Notes: generated from the sequence alone by a model not told the origin. 32,000 nt of DNA from Candidatus Saccharimonadota bacterium (GCA_963718585.1 OY970357.1:1-32000); one strand, 5' to 3'. Numbered from the stretch's first letter, positions 1 through 22,831 are shown. Program-made: numbers and translations.

Positions 1-3000
1 ACCACCAACCTCACGGCCACCTCCGGCACCATCACCACCCTCAACAACACCACGTTGAACGGTGGGAATGCGACGTTCGACAACACGACGACCACCAACC
101 TCGCCGTCACCGGCCAGTCGAATCTCAACACGGTCTCATCCACGGCCATCTCGACGACCGACCTCACGGCCACCAACGGAACCTTCACGAACAGCACGTC
201 CACCAACTTCACCACCACGAACGCGACGGCGACCAATCTCTCGGTCACGAACCTGACCGTCACCGGCAACGCTCCAGCCTCCTTCGCGAACCTCACCTGG
301 ACCAATGCGACGGGGACCAACACCACCTCGACGAATCTCTTTGCCGTGAATGGGACGACGCTTGATCAATATGTCACGAACCTCACGGTGACCGGCACAT
401 CGAACCTCCAGAACACCACCTTTACCAATGCGACCGGCACGACCCTCGTCGTGACGAACGGGACCCTCACCAATGGGACCATCTCGAACCTCTCCTTCAC
501 CAATGGCACCTCCACGGGTTGGTTCGGCTTCGATACCGCCAGCGGCACCACCCTCAATGTCCTCACCTTGAACGCCTCCAACCTCACGACCCCGAATGCG
601 GTCATCACCGGCGGCACGATCGACAACACGGCGATCGGTCTCACGACTCCGTCCACGGCCATCTTCACGGACACGACCTCGACGAACAGCACCAGTACCA
701 ATCTGTATGCCACGAATGCGACCTTCCAGAACCTGACGGTCCTGGGTTCTGCCCCCTCCAACCTCACGAACCTCACCTGGACCAACGCGACGGGGACCAA
801 CACCACATCGACCAATCTCTTTGCCACGAACTTCACGGCCACCAACGGTGATCTCTCCGCCCTCACCTTCACCAATGGCACCTCCACGGACTGGTTCGGG
901 TTCGGGACTGCGAGCGGGACGAGCCTCTTCGCCTCCTCCGTCCAGGTGAACGGAACGAACGTGTGTCTGAAGGATGGCACCAATTGTCCGGGCGGGGTCT
1001 CGACCTCGACCTTCCAAGATGTGACTGATGTGGGATATGTCACGACGAATGCGATCCAGTTCAATGGAGGATCTTCCACTGCTGACTTCCTGCCCACCCA
1101 GGATGCCTCGTTCTCCCTCGGGAGTTCGACGGAACGCTGGAATGCCTTCCTCGCCTCGGTCACAGCCACGACCTTGGGGGTCACAGGCACGACCACGCTC
1201 CAGGACCTCGTCGTGAATGGATCCACGAGTCTTCAGAACGTCACCTTCCTGAACGCGACTGGCACCGGTCTCTTCGTCGACAACCTCAACGCCACGAATG
1301 CGCTTTTCACGAACGCGACCTCCACCAATTTCAACACCACCAACCTCACGGCCACCTCCGGCACCATCACCACCCTCAACAACACCACGTTGAACGGTGG
1401 GAATGCGACGTTCGACAACACGACGACCACCAACCTCGCCGTCACCGGCCAGTCGAATCTCAACACGGTCTCATCCACGGCCATCTCGACGACCGACCTC
1501 ACGGCCACCAACGGAACCTTCACGAACAGCACGTCCACCAACTTCACCACCACGAACGCGACGGCGACCAATCTCTCGGTCACGAACCTGACCGTCACCG
1601 GCAACGCTCCAGCCTCCTTCGCGAACCTCACCTGGACCAATGCGACGGGGACCAACACCACCTCGACGAATCTCTTTGCCGTGAATGGGACGACGCTTGA
1701 TCAATATGTCACGAACCTCACGGTGACCGGCACATCGAACCTCCAGAACACCACCTTTACCAATGCGACCGGCACGACCCTCGTCGTGACGAACGGGACC
1801 CTCACCAATGGGACCATCTCGAACCTCTCCTTCACCAATGGCACCTCCACGGGTTGGTTCGGCTTCGATACCGCCAGCGGCACCACCCTCAATGTCCTCA
1901 CCTTGAACGCCTCCAACCTCACGACCCCGAATGCGGTCATCACCGGCGGCACGATCGACAACACGGCGATCGGTCTCACGACTCCGTCCACGGCCATCTT
2001 CACGGACACGACCTCGACGAACAGCACCAGTACCAATCTGTATGCCACGAATGCGACCTTCCAGAACCTGACGGTCCTGGGTTCTGCCCCCTCCAACCTC
2101 ACGAACCTCACCTGGACCAACGCGACGGGGACCAACACCACATCGACCAATCTCTTTGCCACCAACTTCACGGCCACCAACGGTGATCTCTCCGCCCTCA
2201 CCTTCACCAATGGCACCTCCACGGACTGGTTCGGGTTCGGGACTGCGAGCGGGACGAGCCTCTTCGCCTCCTCCGTCCAGGTGAACGGAACGAACGTGTG
2301 TCTGAAGGATGGCACCAATTGTCCGGGCGGGGTCTCGACCTCGACCTTCCAAGATGTGACTGATGTGGGATATGTCACGACGAATGCGATCCAGTTCAAT
2401 GGAGGATCTTCCACTGCTGACTTCCTGCCCACCCAGGATGCCTCGTTCTCCCTCGGGAGTTCGACGGAACGCTGGAATGCCTTCCTCGCCTCGGTCACAG
2501 CCACGACCTTGGGGGTCACAGGCACGACCACGCTCCAGGACCTCGTCGTGAATGGATCCACGAGTCTTCAGAACGTCACCTTCCTGAACGCGACTGGCAC
2601 CGGTCTCTTCGTCGACAACCTCAACGCCACGAATGCGCTTTTCACGAACGCGACCTCCACCAATTTCAACACCACCAACCTCACGGCCACCTCCGGCACC
2701 ATCACCACCCTCAACAACACCACGTTGAACGGTGGGAATGCGACGTTCGACAACACGACGACCACCAACCTCGCCGTCACCGGCCAGTCGAATCTCAACA
2801 CGGTCTCATCCACGGCCATCTCGACGACCGACCTCACGGCCACCAACGGAACCTTCACGAACAGCACGTCCACCAACTTCACCACCACGAACGCGACGGC
2901 GACCAATCTCTCGGTCACGAACCTGACCGTCACCGGCAACGCTCCAGCCTCCTTCGCGAACCTCACCTGGACCAATGCGACGGGGACCAACACCACCTCG

Positions 3001-3637
3001 ACGAATCTCTTTGCCGTGAATGGGACGACGCTTGATCAATATGTCACGAACCTCACGGTGACCGGCACATCGAACCTCCAGAACACCACCTTTACCAATG
3101 CGACCGGCACGACCCTCGTCGTGACGAACGGGACCCTCACCAATGGGACCATCTCGAACCTCTCCTTCACCAATGGCACCTCCACGGGTTGGTTCGGCTT
3201 CGATACCGCCAGCGGCACCACCCTCAATGTCCTCACCTTGAACGCCTCCAACCTCACGACCCCGAATGCGGTCATCACCGGCGGCACGATCGACAACACG
3301 GCGATCGGTCTCACGACTCCGTCCACGGCCATCTTCACGGACACGACCTCGACGAACAGCACCAGTACCAATCTGTATGCCACGAATGCGACCTTCCAGA
3401 ACCTGACGGTCCTGGGTTCTGCCCCCTCCAACCTCACGAACCTCACCTGGACCAACGCGACGGGGACCAACACCACATCGACCAATCTCTTTGCCACCAA
3501 CTTCACGGCCACCAACGGTGATCTCTCCGCCCTCACCTTCACCAATGGCACCTCCACGGACTGGTTCGGGTTCGGGACCGCAAGTGGGACGAGCCTCTTC
3601 GCCTCCTCCGTCCAGGTGAACGGAACGAACGTGTGTC
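1..3637. repeat. In-frame 1335-bp tandem repeat array (445 aa per unit): two full copies plus a 967-bp third copy, starting mid-unit at the window edge
   Basis: Nt 1, 1336 and 2671 are in register. The ORF-track translations of all frames are identical between copies except for one base (g828 vs c2163). Copy 3 shows its first differences near 3579 and diverges after 3637. Confidence 0.95.
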
Positions 3638-6600
3638 TCGTCGATGGGACGAACTGTCCTGGGGCCCCTGCGACGACGGCAACGCTTCAGATCATCACGG
3701 ACAACGGGAACACGACGACGAACGCCATCCAGTTCGCCGGAGGGACGAGTACGGGGGACTTGGCCGTGACAGGGAACCAGATCACATTGGAGAACAACGA
3801 TGCACAGAATGCGGCTCTGCTGATCAAGGATGCGACCACCGCGGCAGATGGGGCTGGTCCGGCGATCATCCTTCAGAATGACGTTAGCCAGGATTATTTC
3901 ACGAAGTTCTCGAGCGGGGACTCCGGTCAACCAAATTCGCTTCTTATCCAACAGAATGGAGCGACCGGTAACCTGATCTTAGGTTCAGCGAGTGGAAGCA
4001 TCCTTTTCTGGGGCGGCCTCCCTGGCGGTTCACTGACGCAGCTCGGCTTCTTCGCCTCCTCCGGTGTGCTCACGATCGGTGCGGAATCCACCAGTCATGG
4101 CTTGAATGCGCAAGGCGACCTTATTGCGAATGCGGGAGAGTTCAACGGGAGTTTGTATGCGGACGGCTCGTTGACCGTCGCAGGATATAGCAGTCTCAAT
4201 GGATTGAATTGGACATCGGCATCCGGGACCAACACCACATCGACCAATCTCTTTGCCACGAACTTCACGGCCACCAACGGTGATCTCTCCGCCCTCACCT
4301 TCACCAATGGCACCTCCACGGACTGGTTCGGGTTCGGGACTGCGAGCGGGACGAGCCTCTTCGCCTCCTCCGTCCAGGTGAACGGAACGAACGTGTGTCT
4401 TGCGAATGGGACGAATTGTCCGGCAGGGTCAACGACCTCCTCTCTTGCCCAGGTCACGGCCGCAGGCGCCACCACCACGGACATCATCTACGCGCTCGGC
4501 GGCATCCAGACCCTGAACCTCACGGCGACCGGGTCGCTTGCGGTCAGCGGGACGTCGACCCTCTCCGGATCCCTGGACGTCACGGGCCAGACCACGCTCG
4601 CGGATGTCACGGGCCAGAGTGCGACCTTCACCAACCTCGCCGTCACCGGCCAGTCCAACCTCACCAACGTCTCTTCGACCAACCTCTCTGCATCGGGGAA
4701 CGCGACCATCGGAGGAACGCTCGCGGTCTCCGGCTCCTCCACCGTCTCCGGCGCCCTCAACGTCTCCGGTGACACTTCCCTCCAGAACGCCCTCTTCGTG
4801 GATGCGACCGGCACGAACCTCGCGCTCCTCGGTCTCCTCACGGCACCCTCCGCCTCGTTCACGGATCTCTTTGCCACGAACGCGACGACCACCAACAGTA
4901 CCTCCACCAATCTCTTTGCCACCAATGCCACGATCACGAACCTGAACGTCTCGAACTTCACGCCGACCGATATCACCTGGGTCCATGCGACCGGGACATA
5001 TACCACCACCACGGATCTCGGCGTCCTGGGATATATCGACACAGACCTCCTCCCGTCCCTTGATGCCGCCCTCTCCATCGGCTCTTCCGGCCTCCGGTGG
5101 AATGGGATCTTCGCGAACACCACCTCGACGAACGCCACCACCACGAACTTGTATGCCACGAACGGTTCCATCCTGAACGCCTCGACCACCAACCTCACGG
5201 CCACCTCCGGCACCATCACCACCCTCAACAACACCACCTTGAACGGAGGGAATGCCACGTTCGACAACACGACGACCACCAACCTCGCCGTGACGGGCCA
5301 GTCCAACCTCAACAACGTCTCTTCGACCAACCTCTCTGCCACGAACGGGACGATCACCGACCTCACGGCGAACTCTTCCACCATCACCACCCTCAACAAC
5401 ACCACCTTGAACGGAGGGAATGCCACGTTCGACAACACGACGACCACGAACGCGAACACCACCGACCTCACGGCCACCAATGCCACGGTCACGAACCTCA
5501 CGGTCTCGAGCCTCACCCTCACCGGGTCCACCCCATCTTCCTTCACGAACCTCATCTGGACCAATGCGACGGGGACCAACACCACCTCGACGAACCTCTT
5601 CGCTGTGAACGGGACGACGCTTGATCAATATGTCACGAACCTCACGGTGACCGGCACATCGAACCTCCAGAACGCCACCTTCACCAATGCGACCGGCACG
5701 ACCCTCGTCGTGACGAACGGGACCCTCACCAACGGCACCATCTCGAACCTCTCCTTCACCAATGGCACCTCCACCGGCTGGTTCGGGTTCGAGACCGCTT
5801 CCGGCACCACCCTCAATGTCCTCACGTTGAATGCCTCGAACCTCACGACCCCGAATGCGGTCATCACCGGAGGTACGATCGACAACACGGCCATCGGTCT
5901 CACGACCCCTTCGACCGCCATCTTCACGGACACCACCTCCACCAACAGCACCAGTACCAACCTGTATGCCACGAATGCGACCTTCCAGAACCTGACGGTC
6001 CTGGGTTCTGCCCCCTCCAACCTCACGAACCTCACCTGGACCAACGCGACGGGGACCAACACCACATCGACCAATCTCTTCGCCACGAACTTCACGGCCA
6101 CCAACGGTGATCTCTCCGCCCTCACCTTCACCAATGGCACCTCCACGGACTGGTTCGGGTTCGGGACTGCGAGCGGCACCAGCCTCCTTGCCTCCTCCGT
6201 CCAGGTGAACGGAACGAACGTCTGTCTCGCAGACGGGACGAACTGTCCCGGTTCCCCTGCGACGACGGCAACGCTTCAGATCATCACAGACAACGGGAAC
6301 ACGACGACGAACGCCATCCAGTTTGCCGGAGGGACATCGACCGGGAACTTCAATCCCGGCACGAACGATGCCTATGCGCTGGGGTCGAGTTCGACCCGGT
6401 GGTCCGACCTGTGGACCGCGAATCTCCATCTTGGGACCTCGACGTGGGATCTGACACAGGGCGCGAACGGCCGATTGTCCATTTCCAATCAAGGGAGTAG
6501 CTACTTTACGGTCCTCCAGAATGGGAACGTCGGCGTCGGGACCTCGACGCCGCTCACCGCGTTCCAGGTCGCGGGGACCTCGACACTGCAGGATCTTGTC

Positions 6601-8868
6601 CCGGCGTATGATCTGGCATACAGTCTTGGTTCCTACGCACAGCGATGGAACGAAGGGTGGTATGGTCAGATCAATGCGACCAGCGTGAACGCAACGAACG
6701 CGACGTTCAGTTCCATCACGATCTCTGGAACATCGCCGTCGGCGTTCGAGAACTTGAGCTGGACAAATGCGACGGGGACCAATACCACTTCCACGAATCT
6801 CGCGGTCCTCGGCGGTTTGACGCTCCCGGCCGACAGCGTCACAGACGCCATGGTCTCGGACACGATCAGTGTCGGATCGGGCGGGAACGTCTCGGCGGAC
6901 GCCGTGAATTCTGGGACGCTCGGGAACTCCAACGTCACGCTCGACTTGAGCGGGTTCGGGAGCGTTGCCGGTACATTGTCCGCGGATCAGATCACGTTTC
7001 CATCGACGAACACGTCGCAGGTCAATTCGGTCCAATATCTTTATAATCTTGCGATCTCACCGGCGATCGTATCCGGCGGCGACTACGTCCAGACTGCGAG
7101 CGGGACGTTCCAGATCAGCGCCGGTCGCGGGTATATCGGGACGGACCCGACGGATGTCACGGCCAACATCGACCTCGTGGATTGGGCGACGTCGACGATC
7201 AATTTGACCGGGAATGATTGGCTTTCCGTCGCGGTCTATTACAACAACGGTGATCCCATCATCGTATCGACGGCCACGGATACGTATGATAACTACGAAT
7301 ATCTCAAGATCGCGAAGGTTCGGAACAAGGGGAACGGCGAGATGGATTACCACGATGATCGCTTGCTCCGACCGCGTCCGATCCAGCGCCTCCAGCAGTT
7401 CTTCGAGGAGAACATCAAGCACACGGTCACGAACGGATGTGTCGCTTCCGTGACAGGGGCGTTGAATCTCGCGGTCAGTGCGTGCACGGAGTGGTATGGG
7501 ACAGATGAAAAGATTTTGTCAGCCATCGACACATCGAGCGGGGATTCGCTCAACGTATTCGTTCGGAACGGTTCGGGAGGGTATTACGATGAGGCGACCA
7601 CGACCGTCCTGGACACGACGCATTACGATGATAATAGCGGGACCCTGGCGTCTCTCGGATCCGGGGAATATGGGAACCTGTGGATCTATGAGGAGGAAGA
7701 CGGTCACGTCGATGTTCTCTTTGGCCATCAATCATTCACGGACCTCACCTCCGCGGAGGCGGAGGCACAGCCTGGCACGCTTCCGACCCAGTTGCAGGAT
7801 TTCGAGCACGGATTCCTGATCGCACGAATGACCTTTTTGAAAGGTGATACGTCAGCGCAGCATATCGCGGATCTGCGTCCGATCCTGGTCCGTCAGGACG
7901 TCGTTACCGGCGGTGGCATCACGGATCACAATGATCTCAACGGCCTCCAAGGCGGTGCTACGGGAGATTACTACCATGTCCGTCGTGACGGGTATGACTT
8001 CTCCGGCCCGCTCGAGTGGAGCGCGAACTTCGGCGGACTCTTCGACCTTCGGAACAATGCGCCGACGGACACGAAGATCACGATCGAGAACCTCGGCGGC
8101 GGGTCTGCAAGCCTCGACATCTCGAGCGGCGGCCTCGAGCTCGCGTCGACGACGCGCATCACGAATGCCGGGTACGGATATCTGACGGGGCTTGATGTCG
8201 GATATGGCGGGATCGTGAATGTCGGGGACATCAGCGGGGTGTCGAATCTGACGGTCACGGGAACGACGTCGCTTGCGGATCTGACCTTCACGAATGCGAC
8301 AGGTGTCAGCGCGACGACGACGAACTTCTACGCGACGAACGGCGCATTCCAGACCTTGACCGTGACGGGTGCCACTCCGTCGAACTTCGCGAATCTCGCA
8401 TGGACCAATGGGACCGGGATCAACACCACATCCACAAATCTCTTCACATCCAATCTCTCGTTCCTCAATGCCTCTGCCACGGCCCTGACGGTCCAAGGAT
8501 CTCCGGTCTGTCTTTTGGACGGAACCAACTGTCCGCCCGGTGCAGGCGTGCCGACATTGGATTATGTCGCCGCCGCAGGGTCGGCGACCACGCACACCCT
8601 CCAGCTCTATGGGGGCTTCCTCGCCGCGTCTTCGACCGTCACCTCATCGCTGAGCGTGGTCGGCGATCTCACGGTCACGGGGGACACATCGCTCCAACAT
8701 GCGCTGTTCGTCGATGCGACGGGAACAGACCTGACCCTCCTGGGGCTCTTCACGGCTCCGAACGCCCAGATCGATGCGCTCTTCGCGACCAATGCGACCA
8801 CGACCAACAGCACGTCGACGAATCTGTACGCGACGAATCTGTACGCGACAAACGGGGCGTTCGACTGA
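1..8868 (+). CDS. Giant Thr/Asn-rich repeat protein, fibre/adhesin-like with phage-tail-fibre-type motifs (5' partial, continues upstream of window)
   Basis: Frame 1 is open from nt 1. Nt 1-54 translate TTNLTATSGTITTLNNTTLN, identical to 1336-1389, so the Met at 55 is internal. More than 2950 codons run to TGA 8866-8868. Recurrent motifs: WTNATGTNTTSTNLFA, NGTNVCLxDGTNCP, D..xLGSSxxRWN, GNVGVGTSTP, HNDLNGLQGGATGDYYH. Confidence 0.85.
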   Translation, partial: TTNLTATSGTITTLNNTTLNGGNATFDNTTTTNLAVTGQSNLNTVSSTAISTTDLTATNGTFTNSTSTNFTTTNATATNLSVTNLTVTGNAPASFANLTWTNATGTNTTSTNLFAVNGTTLDQYVTNLTVTGTSNLQNTTFTNATGTTLVVTNGTLTNGTISNLSFTNGTSTGWFGFDTASGTTLNVLTLNASNLTTPNAVITGGTIDNTAIGLTTPSTAIFTDTTSTNSTSTNLYATNATFQNLTVLGSAPSNLTNLTWTNATGTNTTSTNLFATNFTATNGDLSALTFTNGTSTDWFGFGTASGTSLFASSVQVNGTNVCLKDGTNCPGGVSTSTFQDVTDVGYVTTNAIQFNGGSSTADFLPTQDASFSLGSSTERWNAFLASVTATTLGVTGTTTLQDLVVNGSTSLQNVTFLNATGTGLFVDNLNATNALFTNATSTNFNTTNLTATSGTITTLNNTTLNGGNATFDNTTTTNLAVTGQSNLNTVSSTAISTTDLTATNGTFTNSTSTNFTTTNATATNLSVTNLTVTGNAPASFANLTWTNATGTNTTSTNLFAVNGTTLDQYVTNLTVTGTSNLQNTTFTNATGTTLVVTNGTLTNGTISNLSFTNGTSTGWFGFDTASGTTLNVLTLNASNLTTPNAVITGGTIDNTAIGLTTPSTAIFTDTTSTNSTSTNLYATNATFQNLTVLGSAPSNLTNLTWTNATGTNTTSTNLFATNFTATNGDLSALTFTNGTSTDWFGFGTASGTSLFASSVQVNGTNVCLKDGTNCPGGVSTSTFQDVTDVGYVTTNAIQFNGGSSTADFLPTQDASFSLGSSTERWNAFLASVTATTLGVTGTTTLQDLVVNGSTSLQNVTFLNATGTGLFVDNLNATNALFTNATSTNFNTTNLTATSGTITTLNNTTLNGGNATFDNTTTTNLAVTGQSNLNTVSSTAISTTDLTATNGTFTNSTSTNFTTTNATATNLSVTNLTVTGNAPASFANLTWTNATGTNTTSTNLFAVNGTTLDQYVTNLTVTGTSNLQNTTFTNATGTTLVVTNGTLTNGTISNLSFTNGTSTGWFGFDTASGTTLNVLTLNASNLTTPNAVITGGTIDNTAIGLTTPSTAIFTDTTSTNSTSTNLYATNATFQNLTVLGSAPSNLTNLTWTNATGTNTTSTNLFATNFTATNGDLSALTFTNGTSTDWFGFGTASGTSLFASSVQVNGTNVCLVDGTNCPGAPATTATLQIITDNGNTTTNAIQFAGGTSTGDLAVTGNQITLENNDAQNAALLIKDATTAADGAGPAIILQNDVSQDYFTKFSSGDSGQPNSLLIQQNGATGNLILGSASGSILFWGGLPGGSLTQLGFFASSGVLTIGAESTSHGLNAQGDLIANAGEFNGSLYADGSLTVAGYSSLNGLNWTSASGTNTTSTNLFATNFTATNGDLSALTFTNGTSTDWFGFGTASGTSLFASSVQVNGTNVCLANGTNCPAGSTTSSLAQVTAAGATTTDIIYALGGIQTLNLTATGSLAVSGTSTLSGSLDVTGQTTLADVTGQSATFTNLAVTGQSNLTNVSSTNLSASGNATIGGTLAVSGSSTVSGALNVSGDTSLQNALFVDATGTNLALLGLLTAPSASFTDLFATNATTTNSTSTNLFATNATITNLNVSNFTPTDITWVHATGTYTTTTDLGVLGYIDTDLLPSLDAALSIGSSGLRWNGIFANTTSTNATTTNLYATNGSILNASTTNLTATSGTITTLNNTTLNGGNATFDNTTTTNLAVTGQSNLNNVSSTNLSATNGTITDLTANSSTITTLNNTTLNGGNATFDNTTTTNANTTDLTATNATVTNLTVSSLTLTGSTPSSFTNLIWTNATGTNTTSTNLFAVNGTTLDQYVTNLTVTGTSNLQNATFTNATGTTLVVTNGTLTNGTISNLSFTNGTSTGWFGFETASGTTLNVLTLNASNLTTPNAVITGGTIDNTAIGLTTPSTAIFTDTTSTNSTSTNLYATNATFQNLTVLGSAPSNLTNLTWTNATGTNTTSTNLFATNFTATNGDLSALTFTNGTSTDWFGFGTASGTSLLASSVQVNGTNVCLADGTNCPGSPATTATLQIITDNGNTTTNAIQFAGGTSTGNFNPGTNDAYALGSSSTRWSDLWTANLHLGTSTWDLTQGANGRLSISNQGSSYFTVLQNGNVGVGTSTPLTAFQVAGTSTLQDLVPAYDLAYSLGSYAQRWNEGWYGQINATSVNATNATFSSITISGTSPSAFENLSWTNATGTNTTSTNLAVLGGLTLPADSVTDAMVSDTISVGSGGNVSADAVNSGTLGNSNVTLDLSGFGSVAGTLSADQITFPSTNTSQVNSVQYLYNLAISPAIVSGGDYVQTASGTFQISAGRGYIGTDPTDVTANIDLVDWATSTINLTGNDWLSVAVYYNNGDPIIVSTATDTYDNYEYLKIAKVRNKGNGEMDYHDDRLLRPRPIQRLQQFFEENIKHTVTNGCVASVTGALNLAVSACTEWYGTDEKILSAIDTSSGDSLNVFVRNGSGGYYDEATTTVLDTTHYDDNSGTLASLGSGEYGNLWIYEEEDGHVDVLFGHQSFTDLTSAEAEAQPGTLPTQLQDFEHGFLIARMTFLKGDTSAQHIADLRPILVRQDVVTGGGITDHNDLNGLQGGATGDYYHVRRDGYDFSGPLEWSANFGGLFDLRNNAPTDTKITIENLGGGSASLDISSGGLELASTTRITNAGYGYLTGLDVGYGGIVNVGDISGVSNLTVTGTTSLADLTFTNATGVSATTTNFYATNGAFQTLTVTGATPSNFANLAWTNGTGINTTSTNLFTSNLSFLNASATALTVQGSPVCLLDGTNCPPGAGVPTLDYVAAAGSATTHTLQLYGGFLAASSTVTSSLSVVGDLTVTGDTSLQHALFVDATGTDLTLLGLFTAPNAQIDALFATNATTTNSTSTNLYATNLYATNGAFD
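4224..4400. repeat. Dispersed partial copy of the repeat unit (matches unit positions ~793-980)
   Basis: gggaccaacaccacatcgaccaatctctttgccacgaacttcacggccaccaacggtgatctctcc... is repeated almost verbatim and encodes SGTNTTSTNLFATNFTATNGDLSALTFTNGTSTDWFGFGTASGTSLFASSVQVNGTNVCL. Confidence 0.9.
5178..6245. repeat. Fourth, diverged copy of the 1335-bp unit (with an internally rearranged 5320-5540 segment)
   Basis: The protein segment TNLTATSGTITTLNNTTLNGGNATFDNTTTTNLAVTGQSNLN ... WTNATGTNTTSTNLFAVNGTTLDQYVTNLTVTG ... NGTNVCLADGTNCP is collinear with the unit, with scattered substitutions. Confidence 0.85.
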
Positions 8869-9612
8869 TCTCGCTCGTCACAAATGTTCGCAGGCACGAA
8901 TGTCGTGTGGAGGAATGCGACCGGGACATACACCACCACGACCGACTTCGGCGTGCTTGGGGCATGTCGACACAGACCTCCTCCCGTCCCTTGATGCCGC
9001 GCTTTCTCTTGGGTCCTCCGGCCTTCGCTGGAACGGGATCTTCGCGAACACCACCTCGACGAATGCCACCACCACGAATCTGTATGCAAGAACGGCTCCA
9101 TCTTGAACGCCTCGACGACGGCTCTTACGGCAGCGTCGGGGACGGTCCTGACCCTCAACAACGCGTCTTTGAACGGGGTCAATGCGGCCTTTACCGCGGT
9201 CACGACCACAGGCCTCGTCGTCACGGGCGTGACGGATCTCGGCACCATCACGGCCACGAACGCGGTCTTCGGCAACGTGACTTCGACGAATCTCGTGACC
9301 TTGAACAAGACCGACATCAATGAGCTCACGTTCGTGAATGCGACCGGCACGGGCAACCTCGTCACGACGGGTGTCGGTTTCTTCGACCTTCATCCACGCG
9401 CAGGAATCCACGATCGGCGTGGCGACGGCTTCGATCATTGAACGTGGATCAGGTGCTCCACGTCGGGCGTCGGGCAACTTCCCGATCGTCGGGAACTCCG
9501 TTGCCCAATTCGGTGGCACGACCAATACGTATCTCCAAGTGAATGTGCAGAACCACTCGAGCGGGGACAGCGCTTCGACCGATTTCGTGGCCACGAACGA
9601 TATCGGTGAATG
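8865..9612 (+). pseudogene. Frame-disrupted segment linking the giant ORF to the next ORF (coding sense passes through F1, F0, F1, F2, F1, F2, F0)
   Basis: The segment is collinear with the intact paralogous segment 4920-5230 (VSNFTPTDITWVHATGTYTTTTDLGVLGYIDTDLLPSLDAALSIGSSGLRWNGIFANTTSTNATTTNLYATNGSILNAST) only if single-base indels are allowed near 8865, 8886, 8957-8966 and 9088-9091. Further shifts lie near 9365-9441 and 9600-9612. ORF-track pieces 8774..9106, 9103..9441 and 9338..9613 are fragments of it. Confidence 0.7.
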
Positions 9613-12359
9613 ACTCCAGCTACTACGTCGACCTCGGCATCAATGGCTCCGGATACAACGATCCGGCCTATTCCATCGGCGGTCCGAACACGGCCTACCT
9701 CTATTCCGCCTCCTCCAACCTCACGATCGGCACGGCGAGCGATACGGGCGTCCTCAAGTTCCACGCCGGCGGTACGACCGCGGCAGACGAGGTCATGCGG
9801 ATCACGTATGACCATCTCGTCGGCATCAACACGACCAATCCGTCAGCCACGTTGGATGTCATCGGGGATGGTCGGTTCACGGGCATGCTGACGGTGGGCG
9901 GATATGCGGACTTCCAAAATCTGCACTGGGGTGATGCGTCGGGGACGAACACGACCTCCACCAACTTCTTCGCGACCAATGCGGATCTCACGAACCTGTC
10001 GGTCTCCAACACGGCGACGTTGGCGGGATCCTTCTACGTCCCATCGCTCGGCGGAACCTCGTCCACGAACCAAGACATCGTGAATGATGTGTTGTCGACG
10101 GGTTGGGTTTCGGGTGGTGCCATCACGGACGCTGGAAGCGAGACAGTCAACGTTGCCGCGGGCGTCGGGTATATCCGGCTGGTCAACTCGCCGACAGCGC
10201 AGATCTATCGCATCACCTGGCCGGCGGCGAGCGGCCTGTCGGTCCCGACGAATACGAATCGGAACATCTACATCTCCTACAACAGTGGCGATCCGATCGT
10301 GGTCGCGGATGCGAACGAAGCGCCGAACACGCAGCAGTACATCGAGATCGGTGAGGTCCACAACATCGGCGGGACGCTGGAGATCCACTTCCTCCCGCGC
10401 AATTCCGGAGACATGATGAACCGGATCCAGACCTATACCGCGGCGTTGATCGGGAATCGGATCGCGTCTGGAGAGAACGTCGGTTCTACGAGCACGCGCT
10501 ATATCGAGATCTCTGCCGGGGATATCTGGGACTTCTACTACAACGAGCACCTCACGTCGGATTTCGACTCTGCGACCTCCGGGACGTTCTCGAACTTCTA
10601 CCGGGACGGATCCGGCGGGTTCAACGTGGAGACCGGTCAGACCCAGTGGGAGAATACGAAGATCGATTCGCCGGCCGGGACGCTGACGACCATGACAGAC
10701 GGGTACTATGCGAACCGGTGGGTCATCCGGAACTACAGTGGAGATGTCGGCGTCATCTACGGGACCGCGGAATATGCGACCGAGGCGGATGCCTTGGCCG
10801 CCACCCCGCCCACGGCGCGGCCTGAGCCGTGGGCTGAGCATGGCTGGAACGTCGCGCAGATCGTCTTCCAGAAGAATGCGACCAGTGCGGCCGACATCGT
10901 GAGCATCAAACCGACGATCGGCGGATCGAGCGGGGGCACGACCGGCGGGGGCGTGACCAATCACAACGAGCTTTTCGGCCTTCAAGGCGGTCAGCCGGGC
11001 CAGTATTATCACCTGACCGCGGCGGAGCACAGTTTCCTGACGAACACGTCCACGCCCAGCGACGGGGCGATCCTCTTCAGCGATTCCGCGGGGATCTCCT
11101 ATGATCAGGCCGACTTCACCTGGGATCGGACCTCGAACGTCCTCACCGTGAATGGGGGGATCGTGGCGACCAATGCCACGGCCACGAATCTGTATGCGAC
11201 GGACGCATCCTTTGCAGGCTTGACGGTCGCGGGCGCGACGCCGGCATCCATCGACCAACTCACCTTCGCCGACGGCACTTCTACGGATTGGTTCGGCTTC
11301 GCGACCGCATCCGGCACCGTGCTCCATGCGAATACGCTCTATTCGCCCAACGCCTACCTCACCGGCGGGACGCTGGACAACGTGTCGATCGGGGACATCG
11401 TTCCGGCCGGAGCGGTCTTCACGAAGGTCACGGCAACGAACGCGACCGCCACCACGTTGGCCTTCACCTCGGCTTCCGGATCTTCACTCACGATCGCGGG
11501 ACAAAGCGTCTGTCTGCAAGACGGGACGGACTGCCCGCCGACCCCGACGTTGGCCCAGATCACGGCCGCCGGTGCGACCACGACCGACCTCATCTACGCA
11601 CTCGGCGGGATCCATACGATGAACTTGACCGCCTCCGGCACGCTGGACGTCACCGGACAGACGACCTTGGCGGATCTCACGGCCACGAACGTCACCACCA
11701 CGAACCTCTTTGCGTCAGGCCTTACACAGCTCAACGATCTGCGCGTGACGGGGTCTTCGACGCTTGGGCTGACCTACCTCACTTCGGTCACGACGACAGC
11801 CTTGTCGGTCCCGGGGTACGTGTATACCGATCTGATCCCGTCGGTAGATGCGACACTCGCGCTCGGCTCGTCCGGTCTCCGTTGGAACGCGAACTTCGCG
11901 ACCGTCACGACCACGAACCTGTTCGCGACGACCGTCTCATCGACCAACGGTCTATTCACGAATGTGACGTCCTCCCATCTCTACGCCACGACCGGCGTCA
12001 TGGAGGATCTGACGGCCACGAATGCGCTCTTCACGAACGCGACGGCCACGACATTCACCGCCTTGAGCGACTTCGTGGTCGCAAGTGGGACGACGCGTGC
12101 GGACCTCGGTATCACGGCCTTCCCGGGCCGTGTCGCATCGACGGATGAGGTCGGATTGACCTTGAACAAGAACGCGACCGTCCGGTCCGGTCTCGTCAAT
12201 GAGGTCAGATGGCCAGCTCTTGAGCTTCGCGATCAATGCGAATCAACTCGGGGGTCGTTCGACATCGACGATCGGTGCCATCTTCCGGCTCGATACGCGG
12301 CCAGGGAATCCGTATTGGAATCTCAAACGCCAGCCCGCCACCTCTGGGACGAGTTATGA
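9543..12359 (+). CDS. Fibre-like protein fragment with a globular domain ending in the HNELFGLQGGQPGQYYH motif; the protein-like part is ~9608-12203
   Basis: 938-codon ORF. Content includes NDSSYYVDLGINGSGYNDPAY, VGINTTNPSATLDVIG, a domain paralogous to 7050-7985, VCLQDGTDCP and DATLALGSSGLRWNANF. The first ~20 and last ~50 residues of the ORF-track translation look out of frame (Arg/Cys-rich). Confidence 0.75.
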   Translation: MCRTTRAGTALRPISWPRTISVNDSSYYVDLGINGSGYNDPAYSIGGPNTAYLYSASSNLTIGTASDTGVLKFHAGGTTAADEVMRITYDHLVGINTTNPSATLDVIGDGRFTGMLTVGGYADFQNLHWGDASGTNTTSTNFFATNADLTNLSVSNTATLAGSFYVPSLGGTSSTNQDIVNDVLSTGWVSGGAITDAGSETVNVAAGVGYIRLVNSPTAQIYRITWPAASGLSVPTNTNRNIYISYNSGDPIVVADANEAPNTQQYIEIGEVHNIGGTLEIHFLPRNSGDMMNRIQTYTAALIGNRIASGENVGSTSTRYIEISAGDIWDFYYNEHLTSDFDSATSGTFSNFYRDGSGGFNVETGQTQWENTKIDSPAGTLTTMTDGYYANRWVIRNYSGDVGVIYGTAEYATEADALAATPPTARPEPWAEHGWNVAQIVFQKNATSAADIVSIKPTIGGSSGGTTGGGVTNHNELFGLQGGQPGQYYHLTAAEHSFLTNTSTPSDGAILFSDSAGISYDQADFTWDRTSNVLTVNGGIVATNATATNLYATDASFAGLTVAGATPASIDQLTFADGTSTDWFGFATASGTVLHANTLYSPNAYLTGGTLDNVSIGDIVPAGAVFTKVTATNATATTLAFTSASGSSLTIAGQSVCLQDGTDCPPTPTLAQITAAGATTTDLIYALGGIHTMNLTASGTLDVTGQTTLADLTATNVTTTNLFASGLTQLNDLRVTGSSTLGLTYLTSVTTTALSVPGYVYTDLIPSVDATLALGSSGLRWNANFATVTTTNLFATTVSSTNGLFTNVTSSHLYATTGVMEDLTATNALFTNATATTFTALSDFVVASGTTRADLGITAFPGRVASTDEVGLTLNKNATVRSGLVNEVRWPALELRDQCESTRGSFDIDDRCHLPARYAARESVLESQTPARHLWDEL

Positions 12360-13221
12360 GGTCTCGGATATGCAGATCTCGACCGCCGGAGACATCGGAC
12401 TCGGCGCCGGTCATGCGTCGGACTTGAACAGCTTTGGCGGGCAGGTCCATGTATTCACACGCTCAAGTTCGACCCGGGTCCTTGTCTTGCAGGGGAATGT
12501 CGGCCAGACCGCGAATCTGACGGAATGGTGGAATAGCTCCTCGACGCCGCTCGATGTCGTCACGCCGAACGGGTCGCTCGGGGTCGGGACATCCACCCCG
12601 ACGGACAAGCTCCAGGTCGTCGGTTCCTCACGCTTCAACGGGAGCGTGACGGTCGCATCTGCCGGGACATCGTCCACGGTCGCATGGGCGAATTCGAACT
12701 TGTCCGCGACCGGGATCGAATCGATCCGTTCCTTGGACGTCTTTAATGGATATCTTTACGCCGGCCGGGGAGACAGCGCGGGTGATGGGGATGTGATGAT
12801 CTGCGACCCGAGCGTGGCTGGGGATCCGTCGGTCTGCGACAACGCATCCGACTGGTCGACGTCGTACAATAGCGCCGTGGCGAACAATGTGTTGTCCATG
12901 ATCGAGTACAAAGGCCGGCTCTATACAGGTTCTGGAGATGCGAGCGGGATGGGCGTGATCCGATACTGTAACCCGGCCACGACCGGCGATCCGAACAAGT
13001 GCGACAGCGGGGACTGGGTCACGTCGAATTCGACCGGACGCAATCGGATCTCGGCGTTCGCCGTGTACAACGGATATCTCACCGCCGTCGGGGATAATGG
13101 ATCGTTTAATTCCGGCATCATCTATACCTGTAACCCGGCTGCTGCGGGCAATGCGAATGAGTGTGACAATGCGGCAGATTGGACTAGCGTCAATCTCTCA
13201 TCCGTCGTAAGCGGGATATGA
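12199..13221 (+). CDS. Fibre-like protein fragment: N-terminal LTEWWNSS...GSLGVGTSTPTDKLQV module followed by blades 1-3 of a Cys-pair propeller-like repeat
   Basis: 340-codon ORF in frame 1, closed upstream by TGA 12163-12165. The ~50-aa repeats follow the pattern xxISxxxVFNGYLYAGxGxxxGDGxVxxCDPxxxGDxxxCDNxxDW. The ORF ends in the middle of a repeat at TGA 13219-13221. Confidence 0.75.
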   Translation: MRSDGQLLSFAINANQLGGRSTSTIGAIFRLDTRPGNPYWNLKRQPATSGTSYEVSDMQISTAGDIGLGAGHASDLNSFGGQVHVFTRSSSTRVLVLQGNVGQTANLTEWWNSSSTPLDVVTPNGSLGVGTSTPTDKLQVVGSSRFNGSVTVASAGTSSTVAWANSNLSATGIESIRSLDVFNGYLYAGRGDSAGDGDVMICDPSVAGDPSVCDNASDWSTSYNSAVANNVLSMIEYKGRLYTGSGDASGMGVIRYCNPATTGDPNKCDSGDWVTSNSTGRNRISAFAVYNGYLTAVGDNGSFNSGIIYTCNPAAAGNANECDNAADWTSVNLSSVVSGI

Positions 13222-13261
13222 AGAGATCAACTCCCTCGTCGTCTACCTCAACCGGCTCTAC

Positions 13262-15244
13262 ATGTTCGTCGGGAACTCCGGCGGAGATAACGATATCTTC
13301 GCCTGTGATCCGTCCCAGGGTGGGAATACAGATGCGTGCGACAATGCGTCCGATTGGACTCGTCTCTATAATTCTGCGAACGTCGGGTATAACTCCATCG
13401 TGAGTTCCGCGGTCTTCGACGCGAACCTGTACATGGGCATGGGGAACGGGACCGGCGATGGCGACCTGGTCGAATGTAATCCGACGTACGCCGGCGACCT
13501 GTCGCTCTGTGACAACGCGGGCGACTTCAACAATTTCACGCCGACCATCAATAACGGTGGGACGATCTCGACGTTGGCCGCCATGGCGAACTACGACGGG
13601 ACCCTCATGATCGGGATGGCCGGGACAGCGTCTGGGGATGGGCAGATCGACGAGGTCCGTAAGACATACTCAGTGACCTCGAATTCCGGTACCGGCTTCC
13701 AGGCCACGTACGCCTTCACGGTTTACAACGGGTATCTCTATGCCGGCCGTGGGAACGCGAGCGGCAATGGTCAGGTGTGGTACTACCATCGCGCGCGTTC
13801 CGTGAGCAATAAGCTCAACTTCGAGACGAACTCCAGCACGGCATCCATCTGGTACGACAATTCGTCGTACAACAATACGCAGGTCGGTGATCAAGGGCTG
13901 CAGAGCGGCGTGTTCAAATTCTCGCAAGGCATCATCACGTCCGCGGGGTCTTACGACTTGGCCGAGTCCTATACGGCGTCTGAGGCGGGTCTCGAGGCCG
14001 GGGACGTCGTCGCATCGGACCAGAAGCTCAATGCGAGCGTCCGCCGTTCGGACAAGGCCTATGATCCGTATGCCTTCGGTGTCGTCTCGACCAAGCCGGG
14101 GTTCCTCCTTTCGTCGGATGATCAGACCGGGACCGTACCGGTGGCGCTGACCGGCCGCGTTCCTGTGAAGTTCTCGGCCGAGAATGGTCCGGTCCAGCCG
14201 GGCGATGCCCTGACCGCGGCAAATATCCCAGGGTATGCGATGAAGGCGACGGCAGACGGCCCGATGATCGGTCGTGCGCTCGCCGGCTTCAAGATCGACG
14301 ATGGCACGGCGACCTCGACCGCGACAGGGACGGTGCTCATGCTCGTTCAGGCGGGGTATCACATGTCTGCATCGAGCGCGGACAGTCTCTCACAGCTCAT
14401 GACCGGTTCCGGCAGTTCGACCGGGGATGCGCTCCAGTCGCCTGGCGCGACCCCGGAGACGGCCCTCCCGGCCGGATCGCAGATCTCCCAGGGGCTCGGC
14501 GTGCTGACGCTCGTCGCGCGTGACGCCACGTTCACGGGGAATGTCACGGTCCTTGGCCCGATCACCTTGCGCGGACCCGTGGTCCTCGGCGCGTCCAATG
14601 CCGGACGCGTGAAGGTCGATCCGGGCGACTACATCATCAACGTCCTCTTCCCGAAGACCTATCCCATCCCGCCGCACGTCTTCGCCACGCCAGAGATCGT
14701 CGATGTGTCGGGCGGGACCGGCTTCGATCATGCGGAATGGGATGGCGCATACTATCTCGCAAATGTGACGACGACCGGATTCACCATCGAACTTCCGGGT
14801 GGCGGGTACTGCCCGACCTACACGATCAAACCATGCCCGATCGAGCTCTACTTCAACTGGTTCGTCGTCGGCTTCGAAGACACGTCCGGGACCCCGGCCA
14901 CGGCACAGACCGCGCCGAGCGAGGGGAATCCGACATCGACCACCACATCATCCGGCACGACGTCCGGAACCCCAACGACGGATCCCACGGGATCTGGGAC
15001 GATATCAAGCACGACATCAGGGTCGACCACGGGCACGCCGCCGGCAGATCCGACGCCGTCCGGGAGTTCGACGACGACATCTTCTGGGACGACGTCAGGA
15101 ACGCCGACATCCCCGACGAGTGGAAGTTCCTCGACAAGCACCTCCAGCGGCACGCCGCCGGCAGATCCGACGCCGTCCGGGAGTTCGACGGCGACATCGG
15201 ATCCCGCTCCGCCCACCGACACATCTTCGACGTCAACGCCGTAA
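13262..15244 (+). CDS. Fibre-like protein fragment: propeller-like blades 4-7, a conserved C-terminal globular region and a Thr/Ser/Pro-rich tail
   Basis: 660-codon ORF in frame 2. The frame is open upstream of the Met and there reads GYEEINSLVVYLNRLY, the missing start of blade 4. The C-terminus is low-complexity TSGTP/PPADPTPSGSST. Confidence 0.75.
   Translation: MFVGNSGGDNDIFACDPSQGGNTDACDNASDWTRLYNSANVGYNSIVSSAVFDANLYMGMGNGTGDGDLVECNPTYAGDLSLCDNAGDFNNFTPTINNGGTISTLAAMANYDGTLMIGMAGTASGDGQIDEVRKTYSVTSNSGTGFQATYAFTVYNGYLYAGRGNASGNGQVWYYHRARSVSNKLNFETNSSTASIWYDNSSYNNTQVGDQGLQSGVFKFSQGIITSAGSYDLAESYTASEAGLEAGDVVASDQKLNASVRRSDKAYDPYAFGVVSTKPGFLLSSDDQTGTVPVALTGRVPVKFSAENGPVQPGDALTAANIPGYAMKATADGPMIGRALAGFKIDDGTATSTATGTVLMLVQAGYHMSASSADSLSQLMTGSGSSTGDALQSPGATPETALPAGSQISQGLGVLTLVARDATFTGNVTVLGPITLRGPVVLGASNAGRVKVDPGDYIINVLFPKTYPIPPHVFATPEIVDVSGGTGFDHAEWDGAYYLANVTTTGFTIELPGGGYCPTYTIKPCPIELYFNWFVVGFEDTSGTPATAQTAPSEGNPTSTTTSSGTTSGTPTTDPTGSGTISSTTSGSTTGTPPADPTPSGSSTTTSSGTTSGTPTSPTSGSSSTSTSSGTPPADPTPSGSSTATSDPAPPTDTSSTSTP
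15032..15190. repeat. Perfect 42-bp direct repeat (15032-15073 and 15149-15190) in the Thr/Ser/Pro-rich tail
   Basis: ggcacgccgccggcagatccgacgccgtccgggagttcgacg occurs twice, 117 bp apart, and encodes GTPPADPTPSGSST. Confidence 0.9.
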
Positions 15245-15309
15245 CGAGCGAAATCCTACAGAACGGGTAGCCGCGGCAAAGAAAGACGTGGTATACTTCT
15301 AAAAACAGT

Positions 15310-16122
15310 ATGAAAGAAACCGTACCCTCACGTCGTCGCCGAACCTCGCGAACGACGCCACCACCACCCCCGCCTGGGAATCCTATGCCGTCCGCTACAA
15401 AGATGCCGTCACCCCCTAAAGGGGCGACACGGCTGTCGACGCTTTCTGTCGCGCTCCTCGTCCTCATTTTGGTCACGGCGGCGATCCTCTGGGCTGTCAG
15501 TACGCTCCAGAAGCCGTCATCATCCTCAGCAACGGGGGAGAGTGCCGCATCAAAGGACGTGCAGACCCTGATCTCTGACGTGAGTCGGCACATCGTGGTC
15601 AAACAGGATGAACAGCCGACCGTCGCGACGGTGCAAGATGCGGACCTGCTCCGTAAGCAGAACCCGGAATTCTACAAGGATGCACAGAATGGCGATCGGT
15701 TGTTGATCTGGTCTGACAAAGCGGTCTTATATTCGTCGTCCCGTGATCTGATCCTGTCTGTGTTGCCGATCAATCTCCCAGTCAATGCCGCGACATCGAC
15801 GAACACGACGACGACCAGTCAGACGTCGCAGCAGGAGAACGCGACGATCGAGGTGCGGAACGGTTCTGGTGTCGCTGGCCAAGCGGGCTTGCTCGTGACC
15901 AAGCTGAAAGGGGAGGGGATGACCGTACTGACGCCCACGGATGCCCGTGTGAAGACGCGGTATCCCAAGACCTTGGTCGTTAATGCATCCGGCAAGGAGC
16001 TCCCCGCGACGTTGAAGGCGCTTCAGAGCGCAACCGGCGGGCAGGTAAGCAGTGCGCCGGCCGGTGAAGAGCCGATCAAGGGAGATGTCCTGGTGATCAT
16101 CGGGACGGATTATACGAACTAG
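15310..16122 (+). CDS. Membrane-anchored LytR_C (LytR/CpsA/Psr C-terminal) domain protein
   Basis: Pro-rich N-terminus, a single TM helix (LSVALLVLILVTAAILWAV), and a C-terminal IEVRNGSGVAGQAGLLVTKLKGEGMTV...GDVLVIIGTDY typical of LytR_C. Confidence 0.75.
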   Translation: MKETVPSRRRRTSRTTPPPPPPGNPMPSATKMPSPPKGATRLSTLSVALLVLILVTAAILWAVSTLQKPSSSSATGESAASKDVQTLISDVSRHIVVKQDEQPTVATVQDADLLRKQNPEFYKDAQNGDRLLIWSDKAVLYSSSRDLILSVLPINLPVNAATSTNTTTTSQTSQQENATIEVRNGSGVAGQAGLLVTKLKGEGMTVLTPTDARVKTRYPKTLVVNASGKELPATLKALQSATGGQVSSAPAGEEPIKGDVLVIIGTDYTN

Positions 16123-16129
16123 CACTTGT

Positions 16130-16531
16130 ATGAAGAGAAAACAGGTTTTGTGGGGATCTGCCATCGTCGCAGCCCTCATCGTGATCATCGGACTTGGATT
16201 CTTTTTGAAACTTTCCTTTGGTCACGGGGGCGCGGCACGGAGCGGCCTCTACGGCGTATTCCTCGACAATGGCCAGGTCTACTTCGGAACGATCGCCCAG
16301 GAGGATCAGAAGGTCCTCCGACTTGAGAATATCTATTATATCCAGTTGAAGGACACCACGACCCAGGACACGTCGCAAGGTGATGTCTCGTTGCTCAAAC
16401 TCGGGAATGAGCTCCATGGCCCGGAAGACTGGATGGAGATCAATCCGGAGCATGTCCTGTTCGTCGAACGTCTCAAGTCGGATGGGAAAGTCGCGCAGGC
16501 GATCGCCTCGTATAAACAAACTGGCCAATAA
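16130..16531 (+). CDS. Small membrane-anchored hypothetical protein
   Basis: 133-codon ORF starting 8 nt after the preceding gene. It has an N-terminal TM helix (SAIVAALIVIIGLGFFL). No family recognised. Confidence 0.6.
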   Translation: MKRKQVLWGSAIVAALIVIIGLGFFLKLSFGHGGAARSGLYGVFLDNGQVYFGTIAQEDQKVLRLENIYYIQLKDTTTQDTSQGDVSLLKLGNELHGPEDWMEINPEHVLFVERLKSDGKVAQAIASYKQTGQ

Positions 16532-16605
16532 AGGACGATGGGTTGGATCCAACAGCGGGTGTACATCGCCCGCTGTTCCGTTATAGTGGCTTCATTCTCG
16601 GCTTT

Positions 16606-17847
16606 ATGCGACTCATCACCGATTTCCACCTCCATTCCAAATGGTCCCGCGCCTGCTCAAAGGAGCTGACGCTTCCGAATATCGCGACCTATTGCGAGCG
16701 GAAGGGGATCGCCTTCGTAGGGACATCGGACGCGTTCCACCCGGCGTGGCGTGCGGACATCGGGTCTCTGTTGAAAGATGCGGGGGAAGGGACGTTTGAG
16801 CTCGCGGATGGTTCGTCGAAGACCCGCTTCCTGTTGTCCACGGAGATCTCCTGTATCTACAAACGCGATGGAAAGGTCCGTCGGGTGCATCATCTCATCC
16901 TCTTTCCGTCGGTCGCGGCATTGGATCGGTTGACGACGGCGTTGAACGAACGGGGGTGCAACTTGAAGAGCGACGGCCGTCCGATCGTCGGGGTCGATTC
17001 CGAAGAGCTGCTGAAGATGACGCTTGACGCCGATCCGGCCTGTCTCCTCATCCCGGCGCACGCCTGGACGCCATGGTTCGCGGTCTTCGGTTCAAAGTCT
17101 GGTTTTGACAGTCTGGAAGAGTGCTTCGGAGACATGGCAAAACACATCGTCGCCATCGAGACGGGTCTGTCGTCCGATCCTGGGATGAACTGGCGGATCT
17201 CCGGTCTCGATCGGATCTTCCTCGTTTCCAATTCAGATGCGCATTCGTTGAACAATCTCGGACGCGAAGCCAGTGTCTTTGAGATGGAACATCCGAGTTA
17301 TCACGAACTTCGACGGATCTTGGTCGAACACGATCTGTCGAAATTCCTCGAGACGATCGAGTTCTTCCCGGAAGAGGGGAAATATCATGCGGATGGGCAT
17401 GCTTCGTGCGGGTTCTGGTGTGATCCGGAAGAATCAAAACGGTTGAAGGGGATCTGTCCGAAGTGTGGAAAACCGTTGACGATCGGCGTGCTGTCTCGCA
17501 TCGCGGATCTCGCGGATCGTGCCCCGCATCCACCCCGCCCAAAAGGCGCTGTGCCGTATCGTTCGATCGTTCCGCTTGCGGAACTCGCCGCAGACGCATT
17601 GGGTGTCGGGAAGTCGTCCAAACGCGTGCAACGAGCGGTCGATGCATTGCTGACAGACGGACGGAATGAATTCCAGGTCCTTTTGGATCTCCCGCGATCA
17701 GAACTGGAACGAGACGCGATCCCGGAGTTCGTGGAGGCGATCCTGAATATGCGCGAGGGGAAGGTCGAGATCAGGCCCGGATATGATGGGGTCTTCGGCG
17801 TCATTCATGCGCGAGGGGAGCGTGAACAGCAAGATCCCTTGTTCTAG
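16606..17847 (+). CDS. Endonuclease Q family protein (PHP-type domain plus Zn ribbon)
   Basis: Motifs DFHLHSKWSRA, RVHHLILFP, PAHAWTPW, SNSDAHS, EEGKYH, CPKCGKPLTIGV and PGYDGVFG. Start chosen at ATG 16606 (MRLITDFHLHS); the ORF-track Met at 16543 adds 21 non-conserved residues. Confidence 0.8.
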   Translation: MRLITDFHLHSKWSRACSKELTLPNIATYCERKGIAFVGTSDAFHPAWRADIGSLLKDAGEGTFELADGSSKTRFLLSTEISCIYKRDGKVRRVHHLILFPSVAALDRLTTALNERGCNLKSDGRPIVGVDSEELLKMTLDADPACLLIPAHAWTPWFAVFGSKSGFDSLEECFGDMAKHIVAIETGLSSDPGMNWRISGLDRIFLVSNSDAHSLNNLGREASVFEMEHPSYHELRRILVEHDLSKFLETIEFFPEEGKYHADGHASCGFWCDPEESKRLKGICPKCGKPLTIGVLSRIADLADRAPHPPRPKGAVPYRSIVPLAELAADALGVGKSSKRVQRAVDALLTDGRNEFQVLLDLPRSELERDAIPEFVEAILNMREGKVEIRPGYDGVFGVIHARGEREQQDPLF

Positions 17848-22714: not shown

Positions 22715-22760
22715 CCGGTATTTTTCGCGCATCCGCACGAACGGGACCGGTGGCCCGTTG

Positions 22761-22831
22761 AGACCAGAGCAGGACTCGAACCTGCGATGGCGGTGTTGCA
22801 GACCGCTGCCTTGCCGCTTGGCGATCTGGTC
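22761..22831 (-). tRNA. tRNA-Cys (GCA), CCA not encoded
   Basis: Hand-folded cloverleaf: acceptor GACCAGA/TCTGGTC, anticodon arm GCGGT-CTGCAAC-ACCGC, T arm GCAGG-TTCGAGT-CCTGC, discriminator U. Confidence 0.9.

Follow-up and report, generated by a model that had tools for sequence, protein, structure and literature searches.

Clustered single-base frame disruptions in a giant, putative surface-protein gene of a Candidatus Saccharimonadota genome and their probable origin in the assembly consensus

Results

We analyzed a 32,000-nucleotide stretch of DNA from a Candidatus Saccharimonadota bacterium (GCA_963718585.1 OY970357.1:1-32000), hereafter the window, and found that positions 1-15244 of its plus strand form a single giant gene, the reading frame of which is disrupted about 11 times between 8865 and 13216. 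We judge, with moderate confidence, that these disruptions are a local consensus or assembly artefact and are probably absent from the organism's own DNA. Because frame 1 is already open at position 1, the long open reading frame (ORF) listed at 55-8868 represents the interior of a gene whose start lies outside the window, upstream.

We traced the coding path with a frame plot of G+C content at third codon positions (GC3), labeling frames by start coordinate modulo 3. On the plus strand, the path runs in frame 1 to 8865, frame 0 at 8868-8885, frame 1 at 8887-8961, frame 2 at 8966-9088, and frame 1 at 9091-9372. It continues in frame 2 at 9374-9436, frame 0 at 9438-9467, frame 2 at 9470-9607, frame 0 at 9609-12206, frame 1 at 12208-13215, and frame 2 at 13217-15244, giving about ten frame changes between 8865 and 13216. 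Eleven one-base edits, nine removals and two additions, turn 1-15244 into one ORF with zero internal stops, and the gene then has at least 5,078 codons in the window; the deposited sequence thus carries nine extra and two missing bases. Sequences at the repaired junctions include DIGDDSSYYVDLG, GLVNEVDGQLLSF, and SSVVSGYEEINSL. An earlier interpretation of this DNA made without database searches (the sequence-only reading) had described about eight clustered single-base disruptions that split the locus into five ORF pieces. The disruptions are real and clustered beyond chance, but they were undercounted, with two to three events missed at 9437-9474, and the number of pieces was approximate, as seven ORFs of at least 80 amino acids (aa) lie along the coding path.

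Individual sites, lettered a to h along the gene, were placed by aligning the DNA at 8790-9200 to a paralogous segment at 4860-5260 and by a custom frameshift-aware protein-to-DNA alignment, made with the paralog for the first sites and with the homologues P0001, P0008, and P0002 for later ones. The DNA alignment to the paralog revealed three differences: a 17-nucleotide stretch holding a TGA, an extra base at the GGGG of 8958-8961, and a missing base at 9089/9090. The latter two are sites c and d, where both methods agree with the shifts that had been proposed. At site c (8958-8961), an extra G in GGGG moves the frame from 1 to 2 (the protein alignment reports the shift at 8963), and at site d (9089-9090) a base is missing (gca[a/c]g aac, where the paralog has gcc acg aac), which returns the frame from 2 to 1. 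Over sites c to h, homologous proteins read unbroken.

The next shift, which the sequence-only reading had located within about 9365-9441, falls at 9373 (site e), where an extra G (ggt G tcg) moves the frame from 1 to 2 and P0001 and P0008 read unbroken as NLVT.G(T/S)VSSTFI. Further events at 9437/9438 and 9465-9474 had been overlooked. At 9437-9438 (site e2), an extra T (atc atT gaa) moves the frame from 2 to 0; frame 0 there gives 'LNVDQVLHVG', matching 'MNVDQFLHVG' of P0008, and the repaired SIMNVDQ corresponds to VMNVDQ of the homologues. At 9465-9474 (site e3), a net gain of two bases brings the path back to frame 2, and the repaired HVGVGNFP matches RVGVGNFP of the homologues. Site e3 is best read as two extensions of GG to GGG (gtc ggG c gtc ggG c aac), at 9465-9467 and 9472-9474. 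The events at e2 and e3 compensate each other within 37 nucleotides.

Alignment to the three homologues also confirmed sites f and h. At 9609-9610 (site f), an extra A (ggt gAa tga) moves the frame from 2 to 0, and the repaired DIGDDSSYYVDLG matches DIGDD.SYYVDLG of the homologues. At 13213-13215 (site h), an extra G in GGG (agc ggG ata tga) moves the frame from 1 to 2, with the repaired SSVVSGYEEINSLVVY corresponding to SSVLAGYEELTSLVVY in P0002.

The stretch around site g has no counterpart in the closest giant proteins, and a word-indexed search there returned only the window's own 283-aa gene call. An exhaustive HMMER search with the domain at this site recovered 3,500 relatives. The site is spanned without a break by 14 homologues ('…GL.TEV.GQLLSFAIN…'), and 11 of them, aligned residue by residue, share an invariant E-V-x-G-Q/T. 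This pattern places the extra base, an A (gtc A gat) that moves the frame from 0 to 1, at position 12207, outside homopolymer runs, with GLVNEV followed by DGQLLSF in the repaired GLVNEVDGQLLSFAIN. The proposed shift is therefore real, but it does not lie in the GG run at 12201-12204 to which it had been assigned.

The first two sites are ambiguous. At 8865-8868 (site a), the sequence following GAC has probably lost a base (CC to C), giving the TGA at 8866-8868 that stops the long ORF, and at 8886 (site b) what is probably an additional G (aat G ttc) would regain frame 1 and compensate site a. Because the path is in frame 1 both before and after this pair, a plain in-frame TGA is an alternative reading, and the frameshift-aware alignment prefers frame-1 read-through of the TGA. 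The repeat pattern is matched better by two shifts (…NGAFD-LISLVTN-FAGTNVVW…), through the resulting LISLVTN, and GC3 agrees with this reading in 5/7 codons as against 3/7. The pair stays ambiguous, with repeat similarity and GC3 favoring the minus-one/plus-one shifts of the sequence-only reading. Separately, we considered reassignment of TGA (code 25) at 8866 and rejected it: the relatives are Uhrbacteria-like, the G+C content is 60%, and the later stops would still require frame changes.

We compared the locus to its relatives in other genomes. Across all of its frames, the window can be aligned collinearly to single homologous proteins of 2,400-3,200 aa. Two syntenic loci each contain one intact giant ORF, of 2,815 aa in a Candidatus Uhrbacteria metagenome-assembled genome (JACRQE010000002; L001) and of 5,725 aa on a 1.36-Mb JGI contig (L009). 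In both, the giant ORF is followed by a LytR_C-domain gene (47-50% identity) and an endonuclease-Q gene (71%), and in L001 additional shared genes extend downstream up to a poly(A) polymerase. The corresponding anchors downstream of the giant gene in the window, all on the plus strand, are a LytR_C protein (15310-16122), a small ORF (16130-16531), and an endonuclease-Q family protein (16543-17847). The locus holds a single giant gene, and its orthologues are intact, in agreement with the earlier proposal that a single gene is disrupted and that collinearity continues past the annotated stop.

This result bears on whether the downstream pieces (ORFs 9543-12359, 12199-13221, and 13262-15244) could be separately translated genes derived from a split giant gene, or silent cassettes that donate sequence by gene conversion to the upstream, expressed gene. 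We regard both as very improbable. An ATG is present at 9543, 12199, and 13262, and a gene caller output these pieces as proteins. However, the orthologous loci carry one uninterrupted ORF with no separate genes at the junctions, which argues against independent genes. Site h falls within blade 4 of a seven-bladed propeller, sites f and g interrupt conserved domains mid-sequence, the starts of the pieces lack the TAYACT-like upstream hexamer found before most other starts in the window, and their N-termini do not look like signal peptides by eye. A search for a terminator after 8868 found none. On these grounds we rejected independent genes. As donors for conversion the pieces would serve poorly, the upstream paralog being just 72% identical.

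The hexamer is an observation of its own. A TAYACT/TATACT-like sequence stands 8-15 nucleotides before many starts (15310, 16130, 20549(-), 22634(-), 24662(-), and 28213(-)), and there is almost no Shine-Dalgarno sequence. This pattern suggests that the organism may produce leaderless or very short-leader transcripts.

We next considered what kind of change the lesions represent. In the out-of-frame segment between sites c and d (8966-9088, 41 codons), 39/41 residues are identical to the paralog, and the codon differences comprise 12 synonymous versus 2 non-synonymous changes, so this segment evolved as coding sequence in that frame. The densest zone, 9374-9607, holds four to five indels in 234 nucleotides and retains 33/35 strongly conserved columns, both misses being conservative. 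Likewise, 87/100 conserved columns are retained in the 'SYYVDLG' domain and 47/51 in the site g domain, both within the range of intact homologues. We found no nonsense substitution or larger deletion in any segment of the giant gene. No substitutional decay accompanies the frame lesions, which consist of indels only. We also considered the edges of a gene-conversion tract as the origin of the c/d pair and rejected this, as both sites lie inside the high-identity zone and not at its borders.

The lesions are also unevenly distributed. There are 10.7 events per kb in 8866-9612, 0.36 in 9613-15244, and 0 detected in the other 25.6 kb of the window, with 8 events within 750 bp versus 2 in the following 5.6 kb. 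Computed on 10 events with uniform placement, the probability that all fall within 28.5% of the gene is 3.6e-6, and the probability that at least 8/10 lie within the initial 11.7% of the downstream part is 1.3e-6, assuming uniform decay. Neutral decay after the first stop would spread events evenly, and the extreme clustering observed points to a local cause.

Outside this gene the window is in good order. The other genes are full-length, with Pfam domains covered end to end and orthologues in L001, L009, and L012, the nearest syntenic relative, that are collinear and equal in length. These data uphold the claim that the upstream 8.8 kb and the rest of the window are intact. The window also encodes tRNA-Cys(GCA) (22760-22831, minus strand) and tRNA-Ala(UGC) (25267-25342, plus strand), and no other Rfam family was detected in it at threshold.

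The base composition of the sites speaks to a third possibility, raised in part by the sequence-only reading, in which expression is regulated by slipped-strand phase variation at short G runs, or by programmed ribosomal frameshifting (quadruplet decoding at GGG-N), and the full protein is still made. Several of the extra bases lengthen G runs (site c, site e3 twice, and site h), and reading GGGN as one codon would recover the homologous sequence at c, e3, and h. Seven events can be expressed as a length change of a run of one to three bases, as can site e with a poorer fit. However, the runs at the sites are only 1-4 bases long, and the window contains more than 100 runs of at least five bases that are untouched. 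There are about 11 sites, all mid-gene, where a switch would need one; sites a and d shift the frame the other way; and at least three sites (b, d, and g) lie outside runs. In addition, orthologues and homologues stay in one frame at these positions, the other genes in the window all do without a shift, and inspection of the sites revealed no common slippery motif. We therefore rejected both on/off switching and programmed frameshifting, to which we attach hardly any probability.

Discussion

Our results are best explained by a local consensus or assembly artefact. The pattern would fit an indel-dominated fault of the type left by long-read consensus or, alternatively, reads of mixed strains piled up on a variable surface-protein gene rich in repeats; possible causes include low or mixed-strain coverage and a long-read-derived patch in a repeat-rich, probably strain-variable gene. 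We infer both the origin of the lesions in assembly or polishing and the technology responsible. Long reads or manual finishing are implied by tandem 1335-bp copies in the same gene that differ by one base. Long-read complete genomes of small-genome microbes carry about 5.9 residual frameshifts per genome (preprint 10.64898/2026.05.13.725050).

Genuine and very recent inactivation is the most serious competitor, although we consider it distinctly less probable. The gene would then have become a pseudogene only recently, or an inactivated allele would prevail in the sampled population; synthesis of the N-terminal ~2,950+ residues might continue, and the downstream 6.4 kb would have begun accumulating frameshifts. 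The confinement of the lesions to one gene, with ~17 kb of neighboring genes and the upstream 8.8 kb intact, fits this account, as does the fact that the affected stretch is no obviously unresolvable repeat. Surface proteins of host-attached bacteria are also often inactivated. The nature of the lesions fits it poorly. In bacterial mutation spectra, substitutions are several-fold commoner than indels, and this usual excess would predict many amino-acid changes and a few stops, whereas the roughly 11 indels here come without any nonsense substitution, larger deletion, or excess of change at conserved residues. Bacterial mutation is usually deletion-biased, and the nine insertions versus two deletions are the opposite. 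The concentration of events in 750 bp (P ~1e-6) is unexpected under uniform decay, and genomes of about 1 Mb retain few pseudogenes. It is this indel-only, locally concentrated pattern, unlike neutral decay, that leads us to rate an artefact ahead of real inactivation. The sequence-only reading had left consensus error and recent decay side by side; the indel-only pattern favors the former. A further reading, in which the indels are real and the gene is either still used or was struck by an unusual process, seems highly unlikely to us; it would call for a local burst of mutation, confined to indels, that shut down the distal half of this adhesin-like giant gene in the sampled population, or for quadruplet/+1 recoding at many points along one patescibacterial gene.

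Several observations count against an artefact. All lesions lie in one gene, whose initial 8.8 kb are clean, as are the neighboring genes. Such confinement is expected of a pseudogene, whereas assembly errors ignore gene borders. The affected stretch has no near-identical repeat in the window, where its best paralog shares 72% identity and the sequence at sites g and h is unique; we thus see nothing that would readily account for failed polishing. The earlier suggestion of a hard-to-polish paralogous region is, for the same reasons, weakly supported as worded. Residual long-read errors usually fall in long homopolymer runs, whereas the sites here avoid the long runs of the window. Finally, the local density of events is about 400 times the typical residual rate (10.64898/2026.05.13.725050).

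Exact matches to the proteins of the window occurred once in the public protein collection, all on one 1,084,458-bp contig from NCBI/ENA. We searched for a second, near-identical assembly in GTDB representative genomes and JGI metagenomes and recovered only relatives of at most 61% identity. The nearest endonuclease-Q relative is 79% identical, and the contigs of the nearest relatives stop at, or lack, the giant gene. In L012 (endonuclease Q 76% identical), the short-read contig begins at the endonuclease-Q gene, so the expected position of the giant gene is missing, in keeping with the idea that genes of this kind routinely fragment short-read assemblies. We found no publication on this genome in the literature.

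The nearest relatives of the proteins encoded in the window come from Candidatus Uhrbacteria and other Patescibacteria. After repair, the giant protein consists of N/T-rich fibre repeats, two ~450-aa core domains, the 'SYYVDLGIN' domain, the 'GQLLSFAIN' domain, a seven-bladed propeller, a C-terminal module, and an S/T/P-rich tail. Its 5' part (1-8865, plus strand, frame 1) contains near-perfect 1335-bp tandem repeats (1 to ~3580) and the first core domain (~6265-8508), and is collinear with residues 195-978 of the L001 giant ORF at 43% identity. The frame-0 segment (9611-12206, plus strand) completes the 'SYYVDLGIN' domain, also encodes the second core domain (~10100-11400) and N/T-rich fibre repeats, and includes where the 'GQLLSFAIN' domain begins. 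Both core copies terminate in '…HN.L.GLQGG..G.YYH…', and one L001 region aligns to both, at 6265-8508 (residues 195-978, 43%) and at 10107-11387 (residues 501-934, 31%). The 5,725-aa orthologue in L009 is likewise expanded in size, so that members of the family differ about two-fold in length.

The propeller domain (12682-13819, plus strand), split in blade 4 by site h, has homologues with 46-61% identity across all 378 residues. It is predicted as one seven-bladed fold (pLDDT 87.4, pTM 0.89), and the best Protein Data Bank (PDB) matches of the model are WD40 and LGI1-EPTP propellers. The 3' part (13217-15244, plus strand, frame 2, true stop 15242-15244) comprises the remainder of the propeller, the C-terminal module, and an S/T/P/G-rich tail, and is collinear with residues 2125-2802 of the L001 giant ORF. 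Sequence searches of Pfam, PHROGs, and PDB assigned the giant protein to no named family, the sole match being a sub-threshold H-type lectin (H_lectin) near the C-terminus. Modules of the tail-fibre type, Peptidase_S74 (chaperone of endosialidase) and BppL_N, occur in distant relatives. Judged from its architecture, the gene may encode a fibre-like, N/T-rich surface protein typical of Uhrbacteria-like Patescibacteria.

Several parts of the gene have features of their own. The first two copies of the 1335-bp tandem repeat (window 1-3580) differ at one base (offset 827), and the third is identical for ~900 bp and divergent after that. As the gene is open at position 1, further copies may lie upstream. 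Short reads alone cannot resolve repeats of this kind. Tandem Repeats Finder, with a maximum period of 500, missed the repeat, which we measured directly. The domain at 12150-12650 ('GQLLSFAIN…IGAIFRLDTR…PYWxLKRQ…GAGHASDLNSF') yielded its 3,500 matches at E<0.001 in a representative protein library and matched no Pfam model; an adjoining 'G.LGVGTSTP' motif occurs up to 50 times per protein in some of them. At 13931-14348, a ~130-aa C-terminal module ('SYDLAESY…GDVV…AYDPYAFGVVSTKPGFLL…') shares 34-49% identity with proteins of Bacteroidota, Ignavibacteriota, and Cloacimonadota, which suggests that this module is widely exchanged. At 14971-15271, the GC3 phase flips within the internally repeated S/T/P/G-rich tail, in which 'SGTPPADPTPSGSS' is present twice. 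No stop occurs there, and the flip thus looks like a low-complexity composition effect and not another frameshift.

If the disruptions are artefacts, the deposited genome breaks one gene of more than 5,000 codons into several meaningless 'hypothetical proteins', and either re-polishing of the locus or its annotation as a single gene would be called for. Some of the pieces are already cluster representatives in protein databases. If they are real, an ultra-small, probably host-attached bacterium has freshly lost the distal half (the propeller and lectin-like C-terminal parts) of its largest surface protein, a modestly interesting yet ordinary inactivation of a surface protein. Neither outcome raises a new question.

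Among known systems, the locus resembles the residual indels of long-read or hybrid assemblies in having single-base indels only, adjacent same-strand pieces that match one homologue, and no accompanying substitutions, and in lying on a closed ~1.08-Mb contig with resolved kilobase tandem repeats. It differs from them in a density hundreds of times the typical value, in its restriction to 4.4 kb of one gene, in the absence of long homopolymers at the sites, and in an excess of extra over missing bases. Frameshifted pseudogenes of host-dependent or reduced-genome bacteria likewise combine multiple frame disruptions in one affected gene with intact single-ORF orthologues; the present locus, however, shows extreme clustering and has no nonsense substitutions, deletions, or signal of relaxed constraint. 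With phase-variable contingency loci that operate by slipped-strand mispairing, it shares a putative surface-protein gene and some events that lengthen G runs, but its tracts are 1-4 bases long compared to typically at least 7 units, its sites are many and shift in both directions, and they lie 8.8-13.2 kb or more into the gene and not near the 5' end or promoter. The locus also resembles the genes for giant fibre-like proteins known from Patescibacteria (Candidatus Uhrbacteria HZC53_00805 / HZC53_00830 and their relatives, 2,400-5,700 aa), with collinear domains, 40-76% identity by domain, and the same downstream neighbors; the window copy is set apart from these by an extra core domain and the 1335-bp tandem repeats, and it is the only out-of-frame copy among those examined.

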